DNA of 64,000 bases from an uncultured Bacilli bacterium. Its GTDB lineage: Bacteria > Bacillota_I > Bacilli_A > RF39 > UBA660. The DNA lies in the NCBI GenBank assembly GCA_934130405.1, contig CAKOXX010000002.1:28100-92099 (forward strand), read 5' to 3'. The translations under genes and the position numbers were made by a program. The stretch's first letter is position 1, and each line of letters starts with the position of its first letter. Under the pieces are notes generated by a model. The model saw only the letters and a program-made list of their open reading frames with translations. It did no database searches and was not told the DNA's origin. This document shows positions 11,187-39,611 of this stretch, one piece after another.

Positions 11187-12623
11187 GTGAGTAGGATGTT
11201 AAAAAGATTAAATATTATTTTAAATATAATAGCTATCATATTTCTTTTAGTAGTATCTATTTCTATTACTAAGTTAAATATTTTACCGGGTAAATATTAT
11301 TATCCATCAATTGTGTTAGTACTAGTTATGATGCTATTATTTATACTTAGTATATTTAAAAGTGATAAGAAAGGTCTACTAATTACAAGTATCATTAGTT
11401 CAATAGTTATTAGTATAATATCTTCTTTAGGACTTATTTACTTAAATAGTACTAATAATCTATTAGATAATATAAGTTTCAAAAAAGAAAAAAGTATTTA
11501 CTATGTAGTAGTTAAAAAGAATAGTGATTATAAAGAACTATCTGACTTAGATGATAAAAAACTTGCTATTATGGAAAATGGTTCTACTAACTATCAAAAA
11601 GCTTTGAAAGAAGTTAATAAAAAGATAGATGTTAATACTGTTAAATATAAAAATGTTAATGTCTTAGCTAATGATTTAATTACAGAAAAAGTAGATGGTA
11701 TTTTACTAAATTCAAATAGTAAAAGAATACTAGATGATATATTAAAAGATTTTAAGAATAATACTAGAATAATAGAAAAAATATCTATTGATGTTAAACA
11801 AAGTAAAGAAAATGTAACTGTTAGTAATACTGAGCCATTTAATATTTTAATAAGTGGAATAGATACTGATGGTGATATTAACTCAGTATCAAGAAGTGAT
11901 GTTAATATTGTAATGACTGTTAATCCCAAGAATCATGAAGTACTTTTAACTAATATTCAAAGAGATATGCAAGTACAACTTCATGGTACAACAGGAATTA
12001 AAGACAAATTAACTCATGCTGGTATTTATGGTATTGATATGTCAAGACAAACAATTGAAGACTTTTTGGATACTAAAATACCATATTATATTAGAGTTAA
12101 TTTTGATAGTTTAGTAAAAGTAGTTGATACAATTGATGGTGTTGATATTGATAATGATATTGCATTTAAAGGTTATACTAGAAACTTTGAAGTTGGTAAG
12201 TTACATTTAAATGGTAAAGAAGCTTTAGAATATGCTAGAGAAAGAAAGAAAATGCCATCTGGTGACTATACTAGGGGATTACATCAAGAAAAAATAATAG
12301 AAGCAATTATTAATAAAGTAACTACTAGTAAAAAAATATTAAATAGTTATTCTAAGTTTACTAGTGTTTTAGATGAATTTATTCAAACTAATATTCCTTC
12401 TTCAACTATTAAAGCATATGTAAGAGAACAAATTGATACTATGCCTAGTTGGACAGTTATTAGTAGAGCAGTAGATTCAAGTGGTTCTGCTTTAGTAGAA
12501 ACATACTCTATGCCAGGAATGAATTTATATGTAGCATTTCCAGATGAAAATAGTGTTAGAACTGCTTCTACTATTATTAATGGGATGTTAGAAAATAAAA
12601 AGTATGATACTATAAATAAGTAA
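11187..12623 (+). CDS. LytR-CpsA-Psr (LCP) family polymer-to-peptidoglycan ligase
   Basis: N-terminal TM then ILISGIDTDG ... SRSDVNIVMTVNPKNHEVLLTNIQRDMQV LCP core; GTG start (alternative ATG 11196). Confidence 0.8.
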   Translation: MSRMLKRLNIILNIIAIIFLLVVSISITKLNILPGKYYYPSIVLVLVMMLLFILSIFKSDKKGLLITSIISSIVISIISSLGLIYLNSTNNLLDNISFKKEKSIYYVVVKKNSDYKELSDLDDKKLAIMENGSTNYQKALKEVNKKIDVNTVKYKNVNVLANDLITEKVDGILLNSNSKRILDDILKDFKNNTRIIEKISIDVKQSKENVTVSNTEPFNILISGIDTDGDINSVSRSDVNIVMTVNPKNHEVLLTNIQRDMQVQLHGTTGIKDKLTHAGIYGIDMSRQTIEDFLDTKIPYYIRVNFDSLVKVVDTIDGVDIDNDIAFKGYTRNFEVGKLHLNGKEALEYARERKKMPSGDYTRGLHQEKIIEAIINKVTTSKKILNSYSKFTSVLDEFIQTNIPSSTIKAYVREQIDTMPSWTVISRAVDSSGSALVETYSMPGMNLYVAFPDENSVRTASTIINGMLENKKYDTINK

Positions 12624-23861: not shown

Positions 23862-23948
23862 TGGTGCACATGAAGGGACTTGAACCCATACGAAGAAATC
23901 TTCTGCAGATTTTGAGTCTGCCGCGTCTACCAGTTTCGCCACATGTGC
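23862..23948 (-). tRNA. tRNA-Leu (anticodon CAA), type II with long variable arm, CCA encoded
   Basis: 7-bp acceptor stem GCACATG/CATGTGC; anticodon stem GCAGA/TCTGC with loop CTCAAAA; T-arm GGGTTCAAGTCCC; 3' ACCA. Confidence 0.85.
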
Positions 23949-28126: not shown

Positions 28127-29401
28127 ATGAGAGAATATAAATCAAGAATTGCAGATGAAATTTTACAAAAAAAATTAAAAGGAAAAGGCGCAGTATTAAT
28201 TCAAGGACCTAAATGGTGTGGAAAAACAACAACTGCCGAACAAATAGCAGGTAGTATACTTTATATGGCTAATCCAGAAGATAAAAAGCAAAACTTAACT
28301 TTGGCTGATATAAGTCCTAGTTTACTATTAAAAGGAGAAGTTCCAAGACTTATTGATGAATGGCAACTAGCTCCAAAATTATGGGATGCTATTAGGTTTG
28401 AGATAGACCATCGACAAGAAGAAGGACAATTTATTTTGATTGGCTCAGCAGTACCAGCTAATATGGATGATGTTACGCATTCTGGAACAGGAAGATTTTC
28501 TTGGCTTACTATGCGTCCGATGTCTTTATTCGAATCAGGTGAATCAAATGGAGGTGTTAGTTTAGACTCGCTATTCACAAAAAGTGATACTATTTCTGCA
28601 ATAAATGACTTATCACTAGAAGATGTTGCTTATTTGTGCTGTAGAGGTGGCTGGCCAAGAAGTATTTTTATGGAAAAAGAAAAAGCTTTAGAACAGGCTT
28701 TTGACTACTATGATGCAGTTGTTAATTCAGATATTTCTAGAGTAGATGGTGTAAACAGAAATAGTGAACGTGCAAAAAAATTGATGAGAAGCTATGCAAG
28801 AAATATAGGAAGTCAAGCTAATAATGAGACTTTAAAAAATGATATGATTAATAATGACTCATTTTCACTAGATACAGACACGGTATTATCTTATGTAAAT
28901 GCTCTTAAGAAAATATTTGTGATAGAAGAAGTTTCTTCTTGGAATCCAAACTTGAGAAGTAAAATTGCCATAAGAACTTCTGATACTAGATATTATACTG
29001 ATCCTTCCATTGCGGTAGCTGCTCTTGGTATTGGTCCAGATGATTTAATAAATGACCTTAATACGTTTGGTTTAGTATTTGAAAATTTGTGTATTAGAGA
29101 TTTACGTGTTTATGCTGAAAGCATTAATGGTGATGTCTATCACTACAGAGATGCAACTGACTTAGAATGTGATGCTGTTATTCATTTACGTAATGGTTCG
29201 TATGGTTTGATAGAAATTAAGCTTGGTGGTGAACACTTAATTGATGAAGGTGCTAAAAACTTATTGCAATTACAAGATAAGATAGACACTACTAAAATGA
29301 ATAATCCTTCATTTTTAATGGTTTTAACTGCTACAGGTAAATATGCTTATAAAAGGGAAGATGGCATTTATGTAGTACCAATTGGTTGTTTAAAACCATA
29401 A
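28127..29401 (+). CDS. AAA-type ATP-binding protein (COG1373/DUF4143-like)
   Basis: Walker A GPKWCGKTT; size and C-terminal region consistent with the DUF4143 ATPase family. Confidence 0.65.
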   Translation: MREYKSRIADEILQKKLKGKGAVLIQGPKWCGKTTTAEQIAGSILYMANPEDKKQNLTLADISPSLLLKGEVPRLIDEWQLAPKLWDAIRFEIDHRQEEGQFILIGSAVPANMDDVTHSGTGRFSWLTMRPMSLFESGESNGGVSLDSLFTKSDTISAINDLSLEDVAYLCCRGGWPRSIFMEKEKALEQAFDYYDAVVNSDISRVDGVNRNSERAKKLMRSYARNIGSQANNETLKNDMINNDSFSLDTDTVLSYVNALKKIFVIEEVSSWNPNLRSKIAIRTSDTRYYTDPSIAVAALGIGPDDLINDLNTFGLVFENLCIRDLRVYAESINGDVYHYRDATDLECDAVIHLRNGSYGLIEIKLGGEHLIDEGAKNLLQLQDKIDTTKMNNPSFLMVLTATGKYAYKREDGIYVVPIGCLKP

Positions 29402-29403
29402 AT

Positions 29404-29445
29404 TATAATTAAAAAACAGGGCTAGAAGTTATCTAACTCTGTTTT
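29404..29445. terminator. weak bidirectional terminator-like hairpin between convergent genes
   Basis: AAACAG..CTGTTTTTTT. Confidence 0.25.
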
Positions 29446-30254
29446 TTTCTTGTTATATGATAAATAATTCTAACAATAATACCAGCAATGATAAATGTAA
29501 ATCCTAGAAAATAAATCTTACTAGACATATCCAAAATAACTGTTTTAATTACCGAAGAAACATTATCACTCCAAAAGAGAATATTCTTAACATCAATCTT
29601 GTTGAATAGTAAATAATTACCTAAAACTAATAACTCACCAGCACTAGCAAGTGGAATAGTAGCTACATTTTTCTTATAAAAGAAGTGACCAAATATTAGT
29701 AAAAGTAGAGTAGTGATACCTAAGACTATGATTGAAATATCAACTAATTTTACAATCTTTACTAAATAAATACTGAAATTATTAATCTTGGTACTGATAA
29801 TTATTTCATTTGTATAAATCTCTAACATTTGATTAACAAATAAATCCAAAGCTTCTGTTTCTGTTACTACAATATTATGTCTTATTAAATAATTATTAAT
29901 ATTATTCTCTAAATTAGCTTTAACACTATTAGTATCAACACTAACTTCTTTATTATCATAGAAAGCATAGATAGCATTATTTAAACTAGTTCTAATATCT
30001 TCCTTTGTATAGATATCCGTTAAAACTTCATTAGTAAGACCAGACTGGATAAGATAGTTTTGCATTTCTTCATTGATAGAATTATAAACTTTATCATAAT
30101 AATTTATCTTTTTTAAATTATCTATAATATAATCTGGTTTTAGAATAGTTAGTTTCATAGTAAAGATAAGTGTTATACCTAGTACAATAACAGTTAGTAA
30201 TAACAGATAAAAGTAAAATGATAACATCTTTAATTTTTTACTCATAAGTAGCAC
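29433..30254 (-). CDS. hypothetical membrane protein (273 aa), last gene of the sortase operon
   Basis: N-terminal and C-proximal TM helices; overlaps the sortase gene end. Confidence 0.5.
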   Translation of the reverse strand: MLLMSKKLKMLSFYFYLLLLTVIVLGITLIFTMKLTILKPDYIIDNLKKINYYDKVYNSINEEMQNYLIQSGLTNEVLTDIYTKEDIRTSLNNAIYAFYDNKEVSVDTNSVKANLENNINNYLIRHNIVVTETEALDLFVNQMLEIYTNEIIISTKINNFSIYLVKIVKLVDISIIVLGITTLLLLIFGHFFYKKNVATIPLASAGELLVLGNYLLFNKIDVKNILFWSDNVSSVIKTVILDMSSKIYFLGFTFIIAGIIVRIIYHITRKKQS

Positions 30255-30894
30255 CTTCTAACTCTGCATATATTACATATCTTTTAGTTTTAAAACCAAT
30301 TGTATCTACTGGCCAACAAGTATACATCATTAACTCTTCTTTATTAGTTTGAATAGGTAAGCTACTCATATCTTTATAATCAATAACTTTACCTTCTCTT
30401 ACTCTATAAGTAAAAGTTCCGTAACTTGCTTTGATAGTTACAATATCACCAGCTGCTAACTGATAAAGATTCATGAAATGTTGTCTACTATTATGCGCTG
30501 CTAGAATAATAGAACCACCTTCACCAGGAAAGTAACTACCAGAATAATGACCAACACCATATTTAATAATATCTAAGGTGTCTCCGTGATAGACTGGAAT
30601 ACTGACATTAATTTTTGGAATTTCAATTGTTGCCCAAACTGTTCCCCAATTCGGATAAACTGCTAGTCTTTTTTTAACCGAATCAAACTTTAAATCTTGG
30701 GCTTCACTTTGGGTTTTACCAATTGTAATCATATCTATTAAAGAAATATAAGTATCTATCTTCTTTCCAAAACAGAAGAAACAAATTACAACTAGTAAAG
30801 ACGAAATAAAAAAAGAAATTGTTAATTCCTTGGCAATTCCTTTTCCTAATTTGAGAATTCTTTTAAGCATTTGTTCCTGCCATTTTTTTAGCAA
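30238..30894 (-). CDS. sortase-family transpeptidase (class B-like)
   Basis: N-terminal TM; His region ILAAHNSRQHF, Cys region LMMYTCWP, Arg KRYVIYAE. Confidence 0.7.
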   Translation of the reverse strand: MLKKWQEQMLKRILKLGKGIAKELTISFFISSLLVVICFFCFGKKIDTYISLIDMITIGKTQSEAQDLKFDSVKKRLAVYPNWGTVWATIEIPKINVSIPVYHGDTLDIIKYGVGHYSGSYFPGEGGSIILAAHNSRQHFMNLYQLAAGDIVTIKASYGTFTYRVREGKVIDYKDMSSLPIQTNKEELMMYTCWPVDTIGFKTKRYVIYAELEGATYE

Positions 30895-31396
30895 TAACTA
30901 CTACACCAAGTACAGAAATTACACTAGCGATTACTATAACTAAGTAGTTATTATTAGTATTTTGAATTCCATTATCTTTGTCAGTGATAACTGTGAATGG
31001 GGTTTTACCATCTGATTCATAAACAGTTAATTTTCCACCTTTAGTTAAAGTTACTTTAACAGCAGTATTCTTAGAAATATCACTTACAATTGAAACTAAT
31101 TTAGATTTAGCACTATCACTTAAAGCACTATAATCAGTTGCTCCTGATTCTTGAGCTATTGTTAATGCTTCATCAAATTTACTTGCAATATAGTCACAAT
31201 CACTACTAGATAAATCATACTTGTTTAAGTATCTTTCAAGTTCAGTGACAAGGTTTGCTGGTGCACTGACTTGTTTTCCTCCAATTGTGTAAGTATTTGT
31301 TAACTTTGACTTTAAGTCTTGTTTTGTCATAGCACTAACGTTAGTTCCTACTAGGAAAAATACGGCTATTGCTAAAACGTAAAAAACTTTTTTCAT
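30863..31396 (-). CDS. small secreted protein with C-terminal sorting-signal-like tail (candidate sortase substrate)
   Basis: signal peptide; C-terminal GIQNTNNN + hydrophobic VIVIASVISVLGVVVIA + basic KKMAGTNA. Confidence 0.5.
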   Translation of the reverse strand: MKKVFYVLAIAVFFLVGTNVSAMTKQDLKSKLTNTYTIGGKQVSAPANLVTELERYLNKYDLSSSDCDYIASKFDEALTIAQESGATDYSALSDSAKSKLVSIVSDISKNTAVKVTLTKGGKLTVYESDGKTPFTVITDKDNGIQNTNNNYLVIVIASVISVLGVVVIAKKMAGTNA

Positions 31397-31537
31397 AATA
31401 TACCTCCCTACTATATATTAAGTCTATAACATAAATAGCTTAAAAGCAAGGTAATTGTACATTTTTGACAACTAATTATGTAATTTTTTTTAAATAATTA
31501 TGTTATACTATCTGTAATATTTTTTAGGGGGATAAGT

Positions 31538-34500
31538 ATGAATTTAACATATAAAGAATTTTTAAAGTTATTATCAGAAAATACAAGAGAGTATATCGAA
31601 AATGTTATGAATGAGTTATATTATTATGAAAGGTTATCAACTACTAGTGATAATAATCGTTATTTCAATATAATAAGAGCATGTTATATCGGCATGGAAA
31701 AGGATATAGCATATACTGACTTTATAAAAAAGATGAAGTTTGATAGTAGTAATATAGATAATTCTTCTAAATCTCGTATTTATTATGATTTTAAAAAAAT
31801 TCCTGCTTCGTCTAAGGAGGAATTATTTAGAAAATATAATAGTTTTTTCATTTTGCAGGATAGTATTGAAAACTCTAAGTACTTTCAATATTTAAAACCT
31901 AGTGAAATTTTATATGATGCAGTAAAAAACTTTATTGTACGTTGTAACTATAAGGAGGACTACGCCTTTTCTAGGGTAGTTGGAGTAGAAAAAAATAGTG
32001 ACTATCTTGATTTAGTCAGCGAGTTAGTAAAAAGAGATAGGGAACAAGTTAATGTTCAACTTGAAAGAGAACTTTATAAAGATTTAAATTATGAAGTTAT
32101 TTCTTTTGTTGAATGTGCTAGTAAAATAAGAAATAAATTAAGTATATGTTTAGAAAGAAATGTTATTAGGGAAAGTAATTACATTAGAGATACAAGTGAT
32201 TATTTAACACCTTTATCACTATTTCTAGCGATTTTTGAATATGATGGCAAGAAAGTGAATGCTATAGAAAAGATATTTAATGATAAAGGAATAACTCTTT
32301 TTAAAATATATAAAGCTTTAGGAAAGAATCTTAGTAAAGAAATAAAAGAAGAAAAGAAAGATATTCGTGTTATTGATAAATTTTATAGACCATATTTAGA
32401 TAAACATATTAGTGAGTTAGTAAAGAAACTATTTAATAAGGAGTTAGTACCGAATAATTGTGTAGAAAAGTTTATTTCTCAATTTGATGTTGAAGCTTTA
32501 GATATAGTTGACTTGCGAGAATCATTGTTTGCACTTGATGAATTTGATGAGAAACAATTTGATGAATTCTATCATAAGTTAAAACTCCAAACTAAAATAT
32601 CTTTAAATGATACTGCCAAAATATATCAACTATTATTAACACAACTAGATAGTAATTTCTTACTAACTTCTACTGATGATATTGATACTTTAGCTATTTT
32701 AATTTCTTCTTATTATCATAATGGTATAGTTAGTGAATATTTTAAAGATAACGGTATTGCGCTTGAAAATATTTTAGATTTGTTAAATATTAATATCACT
32801 AAAGAAGAACTTAAAAACGTTGCTGTTGATAAAAAAGTATTTATGAAGAAATTTAAGAGACTTATTGTAGATGGTGTTAATAGTGATAGAGATATTTCTA
32901 AAGTTACTCCAACAGATTTTGAGAAGAATTTATGTAATCAAAATTTTAACAAGACAAATATTGTTCAAGGAATATTTGAAAACTTTACCGGTAAGGGGTT
33001 ACCATCTAACTTTATTAAAGAGTTAGATGATTATATTGTTACTAAAAGAAAAGAAAACGCTAAAAAGGAACTAGTTGAATACTTAGAAGAAAAAAACATA
33101 GAAGACGTTGATTTTCTCTTTAAAGTATTAGATGCTTATGAACATTTCCTTTTGAGTAATACTTCTTCCAGTAAAAGACTATTAATGGAAGCAAGTATTA
33201 TTACTGCCTTTGGTATGACAGATATTGGTTCAAAGTATTTAAGTCTGATTCATTTTGATTATGAAAAATTTTTAGTACAAGCTAATATTAAAAATGAAAA
33301 AGTAGAATCAACTGAACTTAGAGATTTAGCTTTCAAAGAAAATCTAGAACCATTTATTAATAATAATGATACAACACTTAGTATTACAGTAAATCTGCTT
33401 AAGAGTCCTGATATTTCTCCTGAAGTTAAAAAGTTTATAGATGATATTAAATATGAAGTTTTAACAGAAGAAGAATTCTATTATCAACAAGAAATAAATG
33501 TAAAAACGAGTGAAGTTAAGGAAAGATTAAAGGAAAATTTGTCAGAAGATATGTTAGGTTTTATTGAATCATCTTTTTGGTATTATCCAAGATTAAGAAT
33601 AGTAGAAGATAGTTGTGATAGAAAATGTATGAGTTTATTCCTAGGAATTATGTCTTCTTTAAAAACCAAAGTACTATTTGAAAAGTATGGTTTTGATTGT
33701 AAAAAAATAATTGATGACTTTGTTGCTGATAGTCCAACATCTAAACAAGTTGCTGATAATCTGTATCTTGATTTTGAATTGTTTTCTAAAGAAAAATTAT
33801 CAGATATTACAATTATTAATGATTTATTTGCAAATAATTATATAAAAAGATTATGTGAAAAAAATAATATATCAATTTATAATTTGGAATATGAATTGCT
33901 TTTAAAAACTGGCAAGTTAGGTAGCCTTAGTATTCCTGAGAAAAAACAATTATTAGAAGCAACCGAACTACCAAGTGTTAATCCATTTAATAATAGTAGT
34001 TTAATTAATTATTCGAATGTCTTAAGTTTTCATTCAAAAAGCATTGAAAAACCATATCAAGAACTTTTAAGTTCTAACTCTATTTCTACTGCTACTAATA
34101 TGATACATGATACGATAAATGATTTATATAAAGAGCAAATAGAGAAGCCAAGTTTCTTTCAACAATTATTTTCACTCATACAAGAAGAAGATAAAGATAT
34201 TGTTTATAATAAAGAAGCAATGATAAAACTTAGAGAAGAATTAGATAAACAAAGTGACAATTTAGAAAAAGAGATTAAAACTTATGCTGAACTAATCGAC
34301 TATATGAAAGCTTTCTATAAGAAGAATGAAGATAGAATAGTAGAGATGGATAGCAAGATGAGAGTAGTTGAAGATTTACAAAATAGTGAAGAAGATGATG
34401 ATACTTTTGGGTTAATTAAATATCAAAGTACTCTAAATATCATGTCTTCTTATAAAAACTCTTTTGTTACTACTGGTAATCTTTGCAAAGCTGAGATAAT

Positions 34501-34843
34501 TAGAGTTTATAATTCGATTGTAAGTCACTTTATGGTTCTTAATTCGATTAGAACTACTAAAGAAGTTTTAGTTCCAATTATTGAATCAGAAAGTATTATT
34601 AGTAAAGGAATAGAAAATGAAAAAGATATTATTGGAGTTATTCATGAGATATCTGATTTATTTAATAATATGGTTGAAAATAATACTGAAGGAATAAGTG
34701 CAAACTTAGCAAAACTAGATAATTTATCCGTTGATAATTATGCTTCTTTAACAAATGGTATAAATAAATTTTTAGAAGATACTTCTAATCTTTCTAGTAG
34801 TAGTGATAAAATAAAAGTAAAATTATATAAGAAAGAGGATTAA
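31538..34843 (+). CDS. large hypothetical soluble protein (1101 aa), no recognisable motif
   Basis: uninterrupted ORF, no TM or signal peptide, no Walker, HATPase or nuclease motifs seen. Confidence 0.6.
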   Translation: MNLTYKEFLKLLSENTREYIENVMNELYYYERLSTTSDNNRYFNIIRACYIGMEKDIAYTDFIKKMKFDSSNIDNSSKSRIYYDFKKIPASSKEELFRKYNSFFILQDSIENSKYFQYLKPSEILYDAVKNFIVRCNYKEDYAFSRVVGVEKNSDYLDLVSELVKRDREQVNVQLERELYKDLNYEVISFVECASKIRNKLSICLERNVIRESNYIRDTSDYLTPLSLFLAIFEYDGKKVNAIEKIFNDKGITLFKIYKALGKNLSKEIKEEKKDIRVIDKFYRPYLDKHISELVKKLFNKELVPNNCVEKFISQFDVEALDIVDLRESLFALDEFDEKQFDEFYHKLKLQTKISLNDTAKIYQLLLTQLDSNFLLTSTDDIDTLAILISSYYHNGIVSEYFKDNGIALENILDLLNINITKEELKNVAVDKKVFMKKFKRLIVDGVNSDRDISKVTPTDFEKNLCNQNFNKTNIVQGIFENFTGKGLPSNFIKELDDYIVTKRKENAKKELVEYLEEKNIEDVDFLFKVLDAYEHFLLSNTSSSKRLLMEASIITAFGMTDIGSKYLSLIHFDYEKFLVQANIKNEKVESTELRDLAFKENLEPFINNNDTTLSITVNLLKSPDISPEVKKFIDDIKYEVLTEEEFYYQQEINVKTSEVKERLKENLSEDMLGFIESSFWYYPRLRIVEDSCDRKCMSLFLGIMSSLKTKVLFEKYGFDCKKIIDDFVADSPTSKQVADNLYLDFELFSKEKLSDITIINDLFANNYIKRLCEKNNISIYNLEYELLLKTGKLGSLSIPEKKQLLEATELPSVNPFNNSSLINYSNVLSFHSKSIEKPYQELLSSNSISTATNMIHDTINDLYKEQIEKPSFFQQLFSLIQEEDKDIVYNKEAMIKLREELDKQSDNLEKEIKTYAELIDYMKAFYKKNEDRIVEMDSKMRVVEDLQNSEEDDDTFGLIKYQSTLNIMSSYKNSFVTTGNLCKAEIIRVYNSIVSHFMVLNSIRTTKEVLVPIIESESIISKGIENEKDIIGVIHEISDLFNNMVENNTEGISANLAKLDNLSVDNYASLTNGINKFLEDTSNLSSSSDKIKVKLYKKED

Positions 34844-34845
34844 TT

Positions 34846-35283
34846 ATGCAAATTTTAGTAATTGATGACAATGAGTTTAAATTTAACAATATTAAAGAAA
34901 TACTTGAAGAAGTAGATGTAGAAGCGGAGATAACTTGGGCAAAATCAAGAAATAGTGGTTTGATAAATATTATGAATCATAACTTTTTAAAAACTGAACT
35001 TCCACCTTATGACTTATTAGTATGTGATAATTATTTACCAGTTACTGATGATGATTACCGGACTGAACCACTTGGAAAAAATATAGTAAGAGAGGTAAGA
35101 AAACGCTTTCGACTTACTGATTTTCCAATATTAATGTGTTCATCAGAACCATTAGAAGAATTTGGTTACAACTATAGTATTACTTATGATTCTTCGGTTT
35201 ATATGAATCCAATGTTTAAAGAAGTAATTGATGATGTAAAAAATAATAAAGCTAAGCAGTTAGTTAAGAGAAAGTGTAATTAA
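34846..35283 (+). CDS. orphan receiver (REC)-like single-domain protein
   Basis: ILVIDDN acidic pair, LLVCDNYLP (phospho-Asp position), ILMCSS, later Lys. ATG lies 3 nt after the upstream stop with an AAGAGGA SD (translational coupling). Confidence 0.5.
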   Translation: MQILVIDDNEFKFNNIKEILEEVDVEAEITWAKSRNSGLINIMNHNFLKTELPPYDLLVCDNYLPVTDDDYRTEPLGKNIVREVRKRFRLTDFPILMCSSEPLEEFGYNYSITYDSSVYMNPMFKEVIDDVKNNKAKQLVKRKCN

Positions 35284-35306
35284 CTATTTAGTAAATGGTG
35301 TAAATA

Positions 35307-36925
35307 ATGGAATATTGGAATTTATTTGATTATGAAGGTAAAAAAAGAAAAAGCTAGCTATTAGGGGAACAAAACTAGCCGATGATGATTTTCATTTAGT
35401 AGTAAATGTTTGGATAATGAATGATAATGGAGAATTTTTAATAACACAAAGAGCAGTCAATAAAAGCCACCCGCTTATGTGGGAATGTACAGGTGGCTCT
35501 AGTTTAATTAATGAAAACTCTAAACAAGCTGCTATACGGGAAGTAAAAGAAGAATTAGGAATAGATATTTCTAAAAGTGAAGGAACGTTAATAGGAAGAA
35601 CAAGAAGATATTATGCTAATTGTCCAGATATCTTAGATGTTTGGTTATTTAAAAGTAATATTTCCTTAAAAGAAGTTGTTATTCAGAAAGAAGAAGTAAA
35701 TGATGTTATGTTTGCTTCTCGTGAAAAAATAAAAGAGTTATTTGATAATGGTCAATTTGAAGCTAATGCTTTATTTAATAGAGTAGTTGATATTGAAAAT
35801 AAAAGTGAAGTTTACTATGTAGGATTTAATGCTAATAATGCTATTTGTAATGAGAATTTCTTTTCATCCATAACACTTAATCCAAATAGAGAAAAAGGAA
35901 ATATTTATTATAAAGAAGAAACTATTGAAGACAAAAATTCTGATAGCTTTCTTAAAGAATATAAAAACTTTCTTATTGAAACAATGACTAATCTTACTAG
36001 AAAAAATGCTAATACTATATTTCTTGCTTTTAATAAAAAAATTAATAACTTGTTAAAGAATCAGAAACAGTTTAATATTATTCACGATAATTATGAATTA
36101 TTAGATAAACTTAATAATAAAAAATTCGCAAGGGAATTAGTAAAAAGTGATGTTCCTGTTATTAAAACTTGTTTTATTGAAAAGAATATATCTTATGAAG
36201 AAGCAACTAGATTAATTAAAAGTAAAAAAATAGTTATTCAAGGAAAAACTGGAGCAGGTGGAAATAATACTTATTATGTAGATGATTTTGAAAAATTCAA
36301 CAAGTATAAAGAAAAGTGTGATAATAAGTATTTTCTTTCAAAATATATTAAACATTTACCTGTTAATATTACACTAGTAATTGGTAAATATGAAACGATA
36401 AGTTTGCCACTTTCTGTTCAATTAATTAAACTTACTGATGATAGATTTAAATATGTTGGAGCAGATTTTATTTATTCCCAAACATTAAATAATACTGTAA
36501 CTGCCAAAATAAGAGATTATACTAGTAAAATTATTAAAAAATTAAAAGAAATTGACTATAAAGGAATTGTTGGAATAGATTATGTTATCGATTCTAATGA
36601 TAATGTTTATTTTATGGAACTTAATCCAAGGTTTCAAGCTTCATCATTTATTATTAATAAATATCTAGAAAAATATTGTTCAACTTGTTTAGCTGAATTA
36701 CATTATTTAGCTATTACTGATAAATGTATTGGTAATAATTACTTAGATAAAATTGATAAAAGTTTTGTGAATTGTTATAATTCAAAAGATTATGACGAGT
36801 ATAAATATGCTAAAAGAGTAGTTAATGGTTATTATGCTAAAAATAAAGATTCTTATTATCGAAAGGTATTTAATTATTCAATATTAAAAAATAGTGAGTT
36901 TGAAAAACGTGCAAAAGATATGTAA
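35307..36925 (+). CDS. NUDIX hydrolase fused to ATP-grasp ligase domain; N-terminus disrupted by a frameshift in an A7 tract (35340-35346)
   Basis: Frame A gives MEYWNLFDYEGKKRKS-stop. The -1 frame continues KKKLAIRGTKLADDDFHLVVNVWIMNDNGEFLITQR into the NUDIX box GGSSLINENSKQAAIREVKEELGI. C-terminal ATP-grasp motifs GIVGIDYVIDSNDNVYFMELNPRFQASS. The track ORF starts only at 35417. Confidence 0.6.
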
Positions 36926-37012
36926 TAGTTTTTAATAATTTGTAAAGTGATTTAATAAATATTGAATCATTGTAGTTAATAGTCTATACTTGATAATAGG
37001 AGGATGATAAAA

Positions 37013-38017
37013 ATGAAGTTTTTAGTAACAGGAGGAGCCGGTTTTATTGGTAGTAACTATTTACATTATGTAGTTAATAAGTATCCTTTTGATGAATTTG
37101 TTTGTTTGGATGCCCTAACTTATGCCGGAAACTATAACAATATTAAAGATTTAGAAGGGAAACCTAATTATAAATTTGTTCATGGTGATATTACTGATAG
37201 AGAATTTGTTTATAAATTATTTGAAGAAGAAAACTTTACTACAGTAATTAACTTTGCAGCAGAAAGTCATGTTGATAATTCAATTAAAAATCCAGAATTA
37301 TTCTTAAGAACAAATATAATTGGTACAGAAGTATTAATGGATGCGTGTTTGAAATATAATGTTTTAAGATATCATCAAGTATCAACTGATGAAGTTTATG
37401 GTGATTTACCGCTTGATCGTAAAGATTTGTTGTTTACAGAAAAGACCCCAATTCATACATCAAGTCCATATTCTACTAGTAAAGCTAGTGCTGACTTATT
37501 AGTAGGTGCTTATCATAGAACTTATGGGTTAAATACTACTATTAGTCGTTGCTCTAATAATTATGGACCATATCAGTTTCCAGAGAAGTTAATCCCTGTA
37601 GTTATTTCCAAAGCTTTGAATGATGAAAAGATTCCGGTTTATGGGACGGGAGAAAATGTTCGTGACTGGATTCATGTAATTGATCACAACATTGGTGTTG
37701 ATTTAATCGTTAGAAATGGTAAGAGTGGAGAAATCTATAATCTTGGTGGTCACTCTGAAAAAAGTAATTTAGAACTTGTTAAGATAATTCTTAAGCAATT
37801 AGGTAAGAGTGAAGACTTGATTGAATTTGTAGCTGATAGAAAAGGTCATGACTTACGATATGCAATAGATTCTAGTAAAGTCGAAGAAGAACTTGGTTGG
37901 AAGAGAACTTATACTTTTGAAAGTGGTATTAAAGAAACTATTACTTGGTATTTAAATAATCAAGAATGGTTAGATGCTATTAAAGACGGTAGTTATAAAA
38001 ATAGTTATAAAGATTAA
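37013..38017 (+). CDS. rfbB: dTDP-glucose 4,6-dehydratase
   Basis: GGAGFIGS Rossmann motif, YHQVSTDEVYGDL, PYSTSKASADLLV (catalytic YxxxK); ATG 37013 with AGGAGG SD at 9-nt spacing. Confidence 0.9.
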   Translation: MKFLVTGGAGFIGSNYLHYVVNKYPFDEFVCLDALTYAGNYNNIKDLEGKPNYKFVHGDITDREFVYKLFEEENFTTVINFAAESHVDNSIKNPELFLRTNIIGTEVLMDACLKYNVLRYHQVSTDEVYGDLPLDRKDLLFTEKTPIHTSSPYSTSKASADLLVGAYHRTYGLNTTISRCSNNYGPYQFPEKLIPVVISKALNDEKIPVYGTGENVRDWIHVIDHNIGVDLIVRNGKSGEIYNLGGHSEKSNLELVKIILKQLGKSEDLIEFVADRKGHDLRYAIDSSKVEEELGWKRTYTFESGIKETITWYLNNQEWLDAIKDGSYKNSYKD

Positions 38018-38028
38018 AAGGGGAAAAT

Positions 38029-38739
38029 ATGAAAAAAAATAATACTTTACTTATAATAATTGTGCTAGTATTAGCAATAATAGTTGTATCTGTTGGAGTA
38101 GGACTTTCTGTTTTTAATAAAACTAAAACAGATAGCAATGAACAACAAAATATTACAAATAACAAAGATACTGTTGATGTTAAAGTTGATTTAGAAAAAG
38201 CTTCTAATAAATTAACAGAATACTTTGCTCTTTACTTAAAAACTAATACTACAGATAGCAATTTAAATAAGAATCTTATGGCGACTGCTGATAATAGATT
38301 AGAAATAATTGATGATTATTTTATGAGTAATGGTGGTGGGGTATCCTTTAATGATAATCAATCTATGTATATCAATATTGATACTTATAAAAATAAATAT
38401 AAAGAGATATATGGTAGTTTAGATAGCTTTGATAGTGATACAAAAACTGTTTCTCCAGCTAGATATTCATTAGCTAATAGTATAGATTCAAGTTTAGCAG
38501 CAAACTTAGTTGCTTGGAATAGTTTACGTAGTGGTGTAATGTACGATAAAGTAGAAATGAAAGTTTCTAATGCTAGTTATGATAGAAGTAGTAAATCATA
38601 TAAATTAACAGGGACAGTTAATTATTCACAATCAGTTAATACGGTTGAATCAGCACCAGTTAGTTTAACTAAAAGTTTCACTATAACTTATGTTAATACT
38701 GGTGATACAAATTATATGACAAGCTTAATTTTAAGCTAA
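38029..38739 (+). CDS. hypothetical membrane-anchored secreted protein (236 aa)
   Basis: N-terminal TM; Ser/Thr/Asn-rich; tightly follows rfbB. Confidence 0.5.
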   Translation: MKKNNTLLIIIVLVLAIIVVSVGVGLSVFNKTKTDSNEQQNITNNKDTVDVKVDLEKASNKLTEYFALYLKTNTTDSNLNKNLMATADNRLEIIDDYFMSNGGGVSFNDNQSMYINIDTYKNKYKEIYGSLDSFDSDTKTVSPARYSLANSIDSSLAANLVAWNSLRSGVMYDKVEMKVSNASYDRSSKSYKLTGTVNYSQSVNTVESAPVSLTKSFTITYVNTGDTNYMTSLILS

Positions 38740-38915
38740 AATAATGACTATTTACAAACTTCAATTTGTAGAGTAGGTGAAAAAACTATACAGGCTTAGG
38801 AAGACAACTTAGCTCTTTCCGACGATAAATAAGTTAAAAAATTATCAAAACTTTATAATGTTATAAAAAATTACTTATTGAGTTTATGTAAGTAAGTTAA
38901 GGAGTAGTGATTTTA

Positions 38916-39611
38916 ATGAAACAAAATTTTATATGTCCATTTTGTGGTTCTTCAGTACCAATTACTTTTGATACTGAAAGAAAAGAATTAATCTATTTTG
39001 GACACGATCAACATAATATGAATGATAGTCGTCCAAAGTATAAAAATGTTTTTGAAATATACATACATCACTGTCCAACCTGTGATAATGTTAATTTTGT
39101 TGCTGAAGGGAAATCCAATCTTAAAGGAATAAAAATACCTATGTATCCTAAATCACTTGCAAAACAATTTCCAAGTTTTATCCCCAAAGCTATAATAGAA
39201 GATTATGAAGAAGCATATTCAATATTGTCATTAAGCCCTAAGGCTTCTGCAACTTTAAGTCGAAGATGTCTGCAAGGAATGATTAGAGATTTTTGGAAAG
39301 TAAATGTTAAATCTGGAAAGTTATATGATGAAATAAATGCAATTAAAGATAAAATTACACCAGCACAATGGAAGGCAATTAACTCTCTTCGTTCTCTAGG
39401 CAATATAGGCGCTCACATGGAGAAAGACGTTAATGAAATTATAGAAATTGATGATGGTGAGGCTGAAAAACTTATAAAACTTATTGAATTATTAATGGAA
39501 AAATGGTACATAGCAAGGCACGATGAAGAAGAACTATTAAATGAAATAGTTGAAATTAGAAATGAAAAAAGTAATAAAAAGACAACTAAACAATTAGAAT
39601 CACAACTATAA
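38916..39611 (+). CDS. DUF4145-like protein with N-terminal zinc ribbon
   Basis: CPFCGS...HHCPTCDN; C-terminal LRSLGNIGAHME matches the R..GN.aAH core of DUF4145; ATG 38916 (track GTG 38907). Confidence 0.5.
   Translation: MKQNFICPFCGSSVPITFDTERKELIYFGHDQHNMNDSRPKYKNVFEIYIHHCPTCDNVNFVAEGKSNLKGIKIPMYPKSLAKQFPSFIPKAIIEDYEEAYSILSLSPKASATLSRRCLQGMIRDFWKVNVKSGKLYDEINAIKDKITPAQWKAINSLRSLGNIGAHMEKDVNEIIEIDDGEAEKLIKLIELLMEKWYIARHDEEELLNEIVEIRNEKSNKKTTKQLESQL

Follow-up and report, generated by a model that had tools for sequence, protein, structure and literature searches.

A strain-variable slot beside wall-polysaccharide genes of an uncultured Bacilli bacterium and its three genes as possible independent cargo

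Results

Three genes in a strain-variable slot

Three adjacent genes of an uncultured Bacilli bacterium (RF39; UBA660) encode a 1101-residue protein, a small receiver-like protein, and a fusion of a NUDIX hydrolase domain with an ATP-grasp ligase domain, and the locus raises the question whether these genes make up one system. They lie in a 64,000-nt stretch of assembly GCA_934130405.1 (contig CAKOXX010000002.1), referred to below as the window. A first-pass annotation, made from the sequence of the window alone, had called open reading frames (ORFs) at 31538–34843 (1101 aa), 34846–35283 (145 aa), and 35417–36925 (502 aa), all on the forward strand and all confirmed here, and had proposed that they form a single three-gene system. 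This proposal is not supported, as all three genes occur together only in one near-clonal lineage. Because the three genes come and go independently in sister strains, we read the slot that holds them as the cargo of a recombination hot spot, a mosaic of three independently assorting genes rather than one machine, and we give this reading an even chance of being right.

Comparison with a sister strain (L002; related loci carry such L numbers throughout) defines the slot. When positions 29400–38100 of the window were compared with L002 by blastn, only 29405–31450 (98.9%) and 36961–38017 (97.1%) aligned. The edges are thus at ~31450 and 36961, and the slot (31451–36960), which has no DNA similarity to L002, contains exactly the three genes; these boundaries bear out the earlier view that the genes sit in an accessory stretch between a sortase operon and rfbB. 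The left breakpoint is located ~60 nt upstream of the start of the sortase operon, and the sequence upstream of that start differs with each cargo. The left flank is a conserved three-gene sortase operon (29433–31396, reverse strand), assigned from its ORFs and from Pfam Sortase matches in homologous loci, with 97–100% amino acid identity in L002. The right flank starts with an rfbB-type dTDP-glucose 4,6-dehydratase gene (37004–38017, forward strand; Pfam GDP_Man_Dehyd/Epimerase), the first of the wall-polysaccharide genes, for which identity is 90–99% in nearly all intact related loci. Between L002 and the window, protein identity is 100% for the sortase and 98.5% for the rfbB product, against just 39% for the large protein and 62% for the receiver.

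Five cargo arrangements around one receiver gene

Twenty-four related loci, gathered by protein look-ups and one metagenome scan, were typed. They share part or all of the PPDK/Fic/sortase ... rfbB frame, and their flanks are 85–100% identical at the amino acid level in nearly all cases; genome and metagenome scans for further loci were constrained by degenerate patterns. Five cargo arrangements (A–E) were found. The large, receiver, and NUDIX–ATP-grasp genes are present together (type A) only in the window, L014, L015, and L023, which represent one near-clonal lineage. Type B loci (L016, L002, L003, and L026) carry the large and receiver genes only, and in type C (L007, L008, L025, and L032) two small unrelated genes precede the receiver and NUDIX–ATP-grasp genes, the large gene being absent. 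The large gene is also absent from type D, whose full set (L009, L010, L011, and L030) consists of the receiver, a GT4 glycosyltransferase–kinase fusion, a guanylate-kinase-like protein, NUDIX–ATP-grasp, and, on the opposite strand, UvrD; six further type D contigs (L012, L013, L024, L027, L028, and L031) end inside the glycosyltransferase–kinase gene. In type E (L029), the receiver stands alone and is followed by rfbB. The receiver gene is thus present in all 24 loci, and the large and NUDIX–ATP-grasp genes each vary independently. Co-conservation in other genomes, which had been put forward earlier as a check on the single system, was not found; instead, four other arrangements exist. Several frame disruptions in the NUDIX–ATP-grasp gene of L023, a locus with 1.7x coverage, were disregarded as probable low-coverage errors. 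A 163-aa gene in L029 has no Pfam or PADLOC match, and a ToxN/AbiQ identity considered for it was dropped for that reason.

Two loci retain traces of exchange. In L002, the stretch directly after the receiver gene (11660–12170) is a remnant, decayed and spread over several frames, of the initial ~210 codons of the GT4 glycosyltransferase–kinase gene (tblastn E 8e-21), which indicates that this large-plus-receiver locus descends from a glycosyltransferase-bearing ancestor and that the cargo arrangements are related by insertion and deletion. In L011, a 54-codon ORF (2503–2667) corresponds to the truncated N terminus of the DUF2628-like membrane protein (233 aa) of L007; it runs into the ribosome-binding site (RBS) of the receiver gene, ends in ...YRKED like the large protein, and marks a deletion junction.

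Downstream of the slot, the conserved genes are rfbB and those for a UDP-glucose dehydrogenase, an acyltransferase, an SGNH esterase, and a choline-binding lysozyme. Enterococcal Epa and lactococcal CWPS are examples of strain-variable Gram-positive cell-wall polysaccharide loci. The present locus resembles them in that conserved rfbB, UDP-glucose dehydrogenase, acyltransferase, and SGNH genes lie beside a segment with strain-differing glycosyltransferase and tailoring genes. Unlike the Epa and CWPS loci, the slot includes genes that are not typical of polysaccharide loci, namely those for the giant TelA-like protein and the orphan receiver and, in some strains, one for a UvrD helicase.

The receiver-fold protein

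The constant gene of the slot (34846–35283, forward strand) encodes a 145-aa stand-alone protein with a divergent receiver fold, assigned from the ORF, an AlphaFold model, and Foldseek searches. Its match to Pfam Response_reg (PF00072) is below threshold (18.6 bits, cut-off 30.2, E 0.002), and the best match among PDB profiles is a CheY homologue (E 0.05). The model is of moderate confidence (predicted template-modeling score (pTM) 0.69; predicted local distance difference test (pLDDT) 67.6) and has a (βα)5 architecture from which helix 4 is missing, the order of elements being β1-α1-β2-α2-β3-α3-β4-β5-α5, with D61 right after strand 3 (residues 57–60). When the model was searched against the PDB with Foldseek, the top 50 matches were all receiver domains (E 8e-5 to 9e-4, probability 1.0, TM-score ~0.6). 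In 23 aligned sequences, D8, C60-D61-N62-Y63-L64, D68, and S99-S100-E101 are invariant, and position 7 is D or E. The acidic pair after strand 1, the Asp at the phospho-acceptor position after strand 3, and the Ser after strand 4 are therefore present. A conserved Lys after strand 5 was not found in these 23 sequences, in which strand 110–113 is followed by Y114-D/N115-S116-S117.

Judged by its predicted structure, the small protein is a divergent orphan receiver. The earlier description of it as receiver-like holds for the fold and for D61 and has to be qualified by the low Pfam score and the lack of the conserved Lys. The protein shares the (βα)5 fold and the conserved acidic residues, Asp, and Ser with single-domain CheY-like regulators and pseudo-receivers (PF00072), and differs from them in lacking the conserved Lys and helix 4, in a 9-residue insertion after the Asp, and in having no kinase in the window. 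As had been stated before, no sensor kinase is encoded there: tblastn of the 64-kb window with two histidine kinase probes found none. Homologues of the receiver were found only in this gut lineage, at 53–99% identity. There was no support for a cyclic-phosphate-processing receiver (cRec; PMC7824862), Response_reg being the only Pfam family matched.

The receiver gene follows the large gene closely, the TAA stop of the latter (34841–34843) and the ATG at 34846 being 2 nt apart. The RBS of the receiver gene (AAGAAAGAGGA, 34829–34839, forward strand), with GAGGA at 34835–34839, lies within the last codons of the large ORF. The receiver gene has the leader tatata(a/g)aaagaggattaat-ATG both where a large gene lies upstream and where none does. 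Since the same leader is found in loci without the large gene, the RBS is that of the receiver gene, and the large ORF takes its last codons from this sequence. Thus the 2-nt gap and the Shine–Dalgarno sequence (SD), from which translational coupling had been suggested, are both real, but the SD is the usual RBS of the receiver. In the receiver alignment (A4), the N terminus comes in two sequence types (MKILVIDDNEFKF... and MNILIIEDDKSKY...) and so does the C terminus (EPLEEFDYNYSITY... and EDVGEFDYNYKIRY...), and these are variously combined, which points to recombination breakpoints inside the receiver gene.

The large protein and its family

The large gene (31538–34843, forward strand) encodes a 1101-aa cytoplasmic, all-helical protein that belongs to an unnamed family. 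No match to the protein was found in Pfam, NCBIfam, PADLOC, or PHROG, and a scan for Walker A, H-box, HExxH, GxSxG, and HNH patterns was empty. The highest 19-residue Kyte–Doolittle hydropathy is 1.11 and there is no hydrophobic stretch, in agreement with the original statement that the protein has neither a transmembrane helix nor a recognizable catalytic motif. The family is real and sizeable, and has no Pfam or NCBIfam entry: an exhaustive profile search of 1.8 billion representatives returned 240 clusters (50% identity) at E ≤ 1e-3 and 146 at E ≤ 1e-30. A third homology search, with a profile of 42 sequences, brought up no proteins beyond the 29 already found. Full-length members have 1022–1629 residues (median 1159), and all sampled loci are 23–33% G+C. 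Searches of phage, plasmid, and viral-contig collections gave no match to the family, and an origin from mobile elements was rejected on this basis.

Self-comparison of the profile with hhalign revealed five tandem helical repeats of ~165 residues (aa 5–175, 176–341, 342–511, 512–661, and 662–820; 31550–33997, forward strand); offsetting the profile by one, two, and three repeat units gave E 1e-40, 5e-31, and 6e-15, respectively. These internal repeats did not match the Clp_N repeat domain (PF02861). The repeats are followed by a C-terminal long-helix bundle (aa 821–1101; 33998–34840, forward strand) that is remotely TelA-like and that contains the most conserved residues of the family: Y922, K972, H997, P1013, G1024, and N1049. 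The AlphaFold model (pLDDT 70.5, pTM 0.38) is all α-helical save for a β-hairpin at residues 864–890, after which come helices of 59 and 61 residues.

The TelA signal comes from other family members. PHROG 5890 ("tellurite resistance") is matched by 13 of the 42 members (best E 2.5e-8), whereas each other PHROG family is matched by at most one; member P0085 aligns to PHROG 5890 over residues 921–1127. Pfam TelA (PF05816) gives 27 and 22.9 bits (cut-off 30) in two of the 42 members, in the equivalent C-terminal stretch of each. The TelA-like character of the C-terminal domain would be a remote but real homology of the family as judged from these profiles, and it is rated as homology rather than membership because the window protein itself matches no TelA model and reciprocal profile searches were negative (see Discussion). 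In likeness to TelA/KlaA (PF05816; PHROG 5890), the large protein is cytoplasmic, without a membrane span, and the C-terminal ~250 residues of the family form a long-helix bundle. It differs in being about three times longer and in its five N-terminal helical repeats, which TelA lacks. A further difference, from Ter systems, is that no TerB, TerC, or TerD was seen in the sampled loci. A tblastn search of plasmids with the TelA of L022 gave nothing for profile building, and no solved TelA structure was found for comparison. In Listeria, TelA is regulated by LiaR and has a part in resistance to nisin and to other drugs that act on the envelope (PMC11765107). TelA has been proposed to build submembrane structures in Ter systems, which have been described as pairing TelA with enzymes for the synthesis of nucleoside-like metabolites (PMC7824862).

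There is no universal partner among the distinct genomic contexts of the family. The receiver gene follows the large gene in the window lineage, including its 87% allele (L016; types A and B), and in the L002-type allele (39%; type B). In L001 and L017 (an "uncultured Mollicutes" assembly), the large gene comes after CYTH and tyrosyl-tRNA synthetase (TyrRS) genes and is followed by genes for an unknown 403-aa protein and a histidine phosphatase. In L004–L006, it is followed by genes for a FadD-like acyl-CoA ligase and a membrane hybrid kinase; L018 has the same partners, with a ligase allele only 33% identical. The family gene of L019 lies on a short contig, that of L020 stands alone among Suf and ABC genes, that of L021 follows SpoIVA, and that of L022 is located beside TelA. 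The gene has neither a receiver nor a ligase partner in L017/L001, L020, L021, and L022.

A recurring theme of receiver plus ATP-dependent ligase, considered for the distant subfamily (L004–L006 and L018), is weak: the ligase there is a FadD-like acyl-CoA ligase of a generic kind, and the other partner is a hybrid kinase resembling ArcB/TorS. Between L018 (12550–14388) and L004 (11586–13409), the acyl-CoA-ligase-like gene is only 33% identical, yet the large protein is 82% and the hybrid kinase 73% identical; to judge from these sequences, the ligase is probably another allelic replacement inside a conserved block. In L021 (4336–7922), two NUDIX genes, a RhuM–Fic gene, and SpoIVA lie upstream of a 1629-aa family member. 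The presence of Fic and NUDIX genes near a family member in both L021 and the window may be coincidence. In L022 (8001–12657), a canonical TelA gene (PF05816; 385 aa) begins 17 nt after a family member, and genes for a 410-aa unknown protein and a rhomboid protease come next.

The NUDIX–ATP-grasp gene and its frameshift

The third gene (35307–36925, forward strand) is interrupted. Its longest intact ORF (35417–36925, 502 aa) is preceded by a short ORF that starts at 35307 (MEYWNLFDYEGKK...) and is out of the main frame, and an A7 run at 35340–35346 is one A short. Adding one A to this run joins the short ORF (MEYWNLFDYEGKKRKS, then a stop) to the upstream extension of the main frame (KKKKLAIRGTKLADDDFHLVVNVWI), yielding a repaired protein of 540 aa, the N terminus of which corresponds nearly residue for residue to those of intact homologues of 539–541 aa. 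In L014 and L015, whose large protein is 98.5% identical, the run is A8 and the gene is intact (539 aa), starting 23 nt past the receiver stop. The start at 35307 in the repaired form means that the true gap after the receiver gene is 23 nt rather than the 134 first reported. The Pfam NUDIX match begins at profile position 12, the first 38 residues being in the other frame, and with A7 instead of A8 the window lacks an intact, full-length NUDIX domain. The fusion described earlier thus stands as to its two domains, and is corrected as to its start, its distance from the receiver gene, and its N terminus, which the frameshift truncates. The copy in the window would be a sequencing error, a pseudogene, or a gene dependent on slippage. 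The exact sequence of the homologues, GKKKKKLAIRG, would be regained by a −1 slip on the A7 run or by slippage in transcription.

Both domains are recognizable. NUDIX (PF00293) scores 36.5 bits (cut-off 21.1), and the translation contains a complete Nudix box (GSSLINENSKQAAIREVKEELGI; 35495–35563, forward strand) of the pattern GX5EX7REUXEEXGU. The ATP-grasp_3 domain (PF02655; 36149–36643, forward strand; residues 245–409 of the 502-aa ORF) scores 56.2 bits (cut-off 23.2; E 5.6e-15) and has the E-x-N metal-binding motif as ELNPR. The nearest solved relatives are isopentenyl diphosphate (IPP) isomerase and MutT for the N-terminal domain and a biotin-carboxylase-type ATP-grasp for the C-terminal domain. 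Both core motifs are common to the window protein and to MutT/IPP-isomerase-like NUDIX proteins and ATP-grasp carboxylate–amine ligases, from which the window copy differs in being frameshifted. None of the NCBIfam equivalog models came near its cut-off for this protein, and no match in the plasmid collection covered more than ~40% of it, so no fusion was found there. In type D loci, the neighbors of the NUDIX–ATP-grasp gene encode a GT4 domain fused to an APH-type kinase, the GT4 domain resembling TuaC/BshA-type wall and thiol glycosyltransferases, and a guanylate-kinase-like P-loop protein. From this gene neighborhood we infer that NUDIX–ATP-grasp may tailor a wall polymer or a nucleotide precursor.

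Candidate defense genes and other features of the region

No named defense system was matched by any of the three genes in PADLOC, in keeping with the first-pass annotation, which could not assign the module to one. PADLOC-DB 2.0 gave no match for the large protein or three of its relatives. The N-terminal 68–87 residues of the receiver match PDC-M60B/C (E 6.5e-6 and 4e-5), and the NUDIX domain matches PDC-S07 (E 1e-11 to 1e-14). These matches differ from the systems proper in being partial and confined to generic receiver and NUDIX cores, with no other PDC-M60 component, and both are candidate systems rather than demonstrated defense.

Around the slot, an AAA_14–DUF4143 ATPase gene (28127–29401; PDC-S01, E 3.5e-62) separates Fic from the sortase operon; it is missing from L014 and L002, where Fic abuts the operon, which identifies it as a strain-specific insertion of a candidate-defense gene. 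A zinc-ribbon and DUF4145 gene (38907–39611; PD-T7-4-like, E 2.9e-14) lies between the TarH-like and SGNH/GDSL genes and has no counterpart at this position in L014 and L015. Both insertions are absent from the 98–99% relatives of the window strain. The Fic gene matches PDC-S04, and upstream of Fic in L007 a 640-aa protein (895–2817) that adjoins a recombinase gene matches PDC-S56 (E 1.9e-222); its gene is a further variable insertion of this neighborhood. Taken together, the PDC-S01, PD-T7-4-like, PDC-S56, and PDC-S04 matches indicate that the neighborhood collects candidate-defense genes.

The three genes lie tightly packed on the forward strand, separated by 2 and 23 nt, and neither the intergenic gaps nor the stretch before rfbB contains a terminator-like site. 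The two terminator-like sites in the region are both within ORFs, and shuffled sequence also gives two; likewise, the promoter scan yielded no more sites than shuffled sequence. A putative SD, AGGGGG (31526–31531, forward strand), is located 6 nt 5′ of the large-gene ATG, and a possible extended −10 element, TGtTATACT (31501–31509, forward strand), lies farther upstream. G+C is 23–35% across the whole window, in which the three-gene region is compositionally unremarkable. The sole Rfam match in the window is one tRNA gene (23865–23948, reverse strand), ~500 nt upstream of PPDK.

Discussion

The mosaic reading describes a hot spot between a sortase operon and rfbB-led cell-wall polysaccharide genes in an uncultured low-GC gut Firmicute. 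The receiver gene is its constant anchor, with cassette exchange on both sides of this gene and inside it, and the receiver retains an acidic pocket and the Asp at the phospho-acceptor position in the absence of the conserved Lys. The large protein would most likely be a cytoplasmic, envelope-associated scaffold for stress or phage resistance, as proposed for TelA, and, as genes of its family usually stand alone, it probably acts by itself. In this lineage, the large ORF seems to have become joined to the RBS of the receiver gene, so that both are probably translated jointly, and the large protein may be subject to modulation by the receiver. NUDIX–ATP-grasp would most likely combine hydrolysis with ATP-dependent amide ligation to tailor an acidic wall polymer or a nucleotide-activated precursor; in the window, it would be inactive or made only through poly-A slippage. 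As a broad function, the original suggestion of a stress or defense module or of cell-surface modification is plausible on sequence grounds.

Several observations weigh against this picture. The large and receiver genes stay adjacent, 0–2 nt apart, in alleles down to 39% identity, which hints at a real functional pair rather than chance. The TelA connection is indirect: the 1101-aa protein of the window matches no TelA model in Pfam, NCBIfam, or PHROG, hhalign of the family C-terminal profile against the L022 TelA gave E 0.23, and an hmmsearch with the same profile over 474 ORFs did not list that TelA. A direct profile link between the large family and TelA, sought against this single TelA, was accordingly dropped. 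Fold models, an earlier suggestion, recovered the receiver fold for the small protein, whereas structure searches with the large-protein model returned generic long-helix bundles only, so that the functional handle on the large protein is thin. The wall-polymer role of NUDIX–ATP-grasp is drawn from its neighbors only, and about nine distinct contexts were sampled for the large family of ~240 clusters.

The adjacency of the first two genes makes a narrower system a live alternative, namely that the TelA-like large protein and the receiver are a dedicated two-gene system for phage defense or envelope stress, in which the receiver switches the scaffold or effector and NUDIX–ATP-grasp is unrelated cargo. 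We regard this as possible, at clearly less than even probability. The 0–2-nt spacing is kept in large-gene alleles that are 98–100%, 87%, and 39–41% identical to that of the window, each with its own receiver allele, and hyperdivergent alleles between near-identical flanks are as expected under diversifying selection; candidate-defense genes are also nearby (PDC-S01, PDC-S04 Fic, and PD-T7-4-like, with PDC-S56 in L007). A dedicated pair is harder to reconcile with the 15 of 24 loci in which the receiver occurs without the large gene, with the family members that have no receiver neighbor (L017/L001, L020, L021, and L022), with the RBS being the receiver gene's own, and with the absence of any PADLOC, phage, plasmid, or viral match for the large family. 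A more far-reaching form of the idea, which we consider doubtful, is that the giant family, with its five repeats and TelA-like domain, would be a new class of envelope-associated anti-phage or anti-bacteriocin effector, controlled here by a dedicated kinase-less receiver, the pair being held as hyperdivergent alleles (39% versus 97–100% for the flanks) by diversifying selection at a defense hot spot.

The receiver could also belong to the right flank, as the first gene of a conserved wall-polysaccharide operon (receiver, rfbB, and onward) that regulates or senses for the pathway, with insertion hot spots for unrelated cargo on either side. Such an operon would account for a receiver gene in every locus, for its position directly before rfbB where cargo is lacking (gaps of 70 nt in L016 and 52 nt in L029), and for its sharing the direction of rfbB and the wall genes that follow, without any terminator-like site. 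However, in the same loci the receiver is 52–100% identical against 90–99% for rfbB and 91–98% for PPDK, a divergence so much greater that it behaves as cargo rather than as core; moreover, it has no DNA-binding or other output domain and no conserved Lys, and its family was found only in this lineage. We deem the operon unlikely. Least probable, in our estimate, is the original idea that the three genes are one nucleotide-signal or conjugating system in which the receiver regulates and NUDIX and ATP-grasp make or destroy a nucleotide-derived signal that acts on the large protein. The shared strand, the short gaps (2 and 23 nt) free of terminator-like sites, the pairing of TelA with nucleoside-like-metabolite enzymes in Ter systems (PMC7824862), and a distant subfamily with an ATP-dependent ligase and a receiver-containing protein downstream all fit it. 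Nevertheless, it is already weakened by the independent assortment of the genes: they co-occur only in one near-clonal lineage, and the window copy of the third gene carries a frameshift. In addition, the distant subfamily has as its partners a FadD-like acyl-CoA ligase of generic type and a membrane hybrid kinase resembling ArcB/TorS, and other contexts of the family (L020, L021, and L022) lack both partners.

With the mosaic as our preferred reading, the "three-gene module" is not a conserved system and should not be catalogued as such, and no categorically new mechanism has been shown at the locus. The large family merits a name and a structure. TelA is an old and widespread resistance determinant, and a TelA-like domain combined with five repeats in at least 240 clusters offers a new handle on its mechanism. 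The locus itself is a clean natural experiment, in which near-identical flanks enclose at least five cargo sets around one orphan receiver, beside wall-polysaccharide genes, and phage, bacteriocin, and wall-chemistry phenotypes compared across these strains could assign functions directly.

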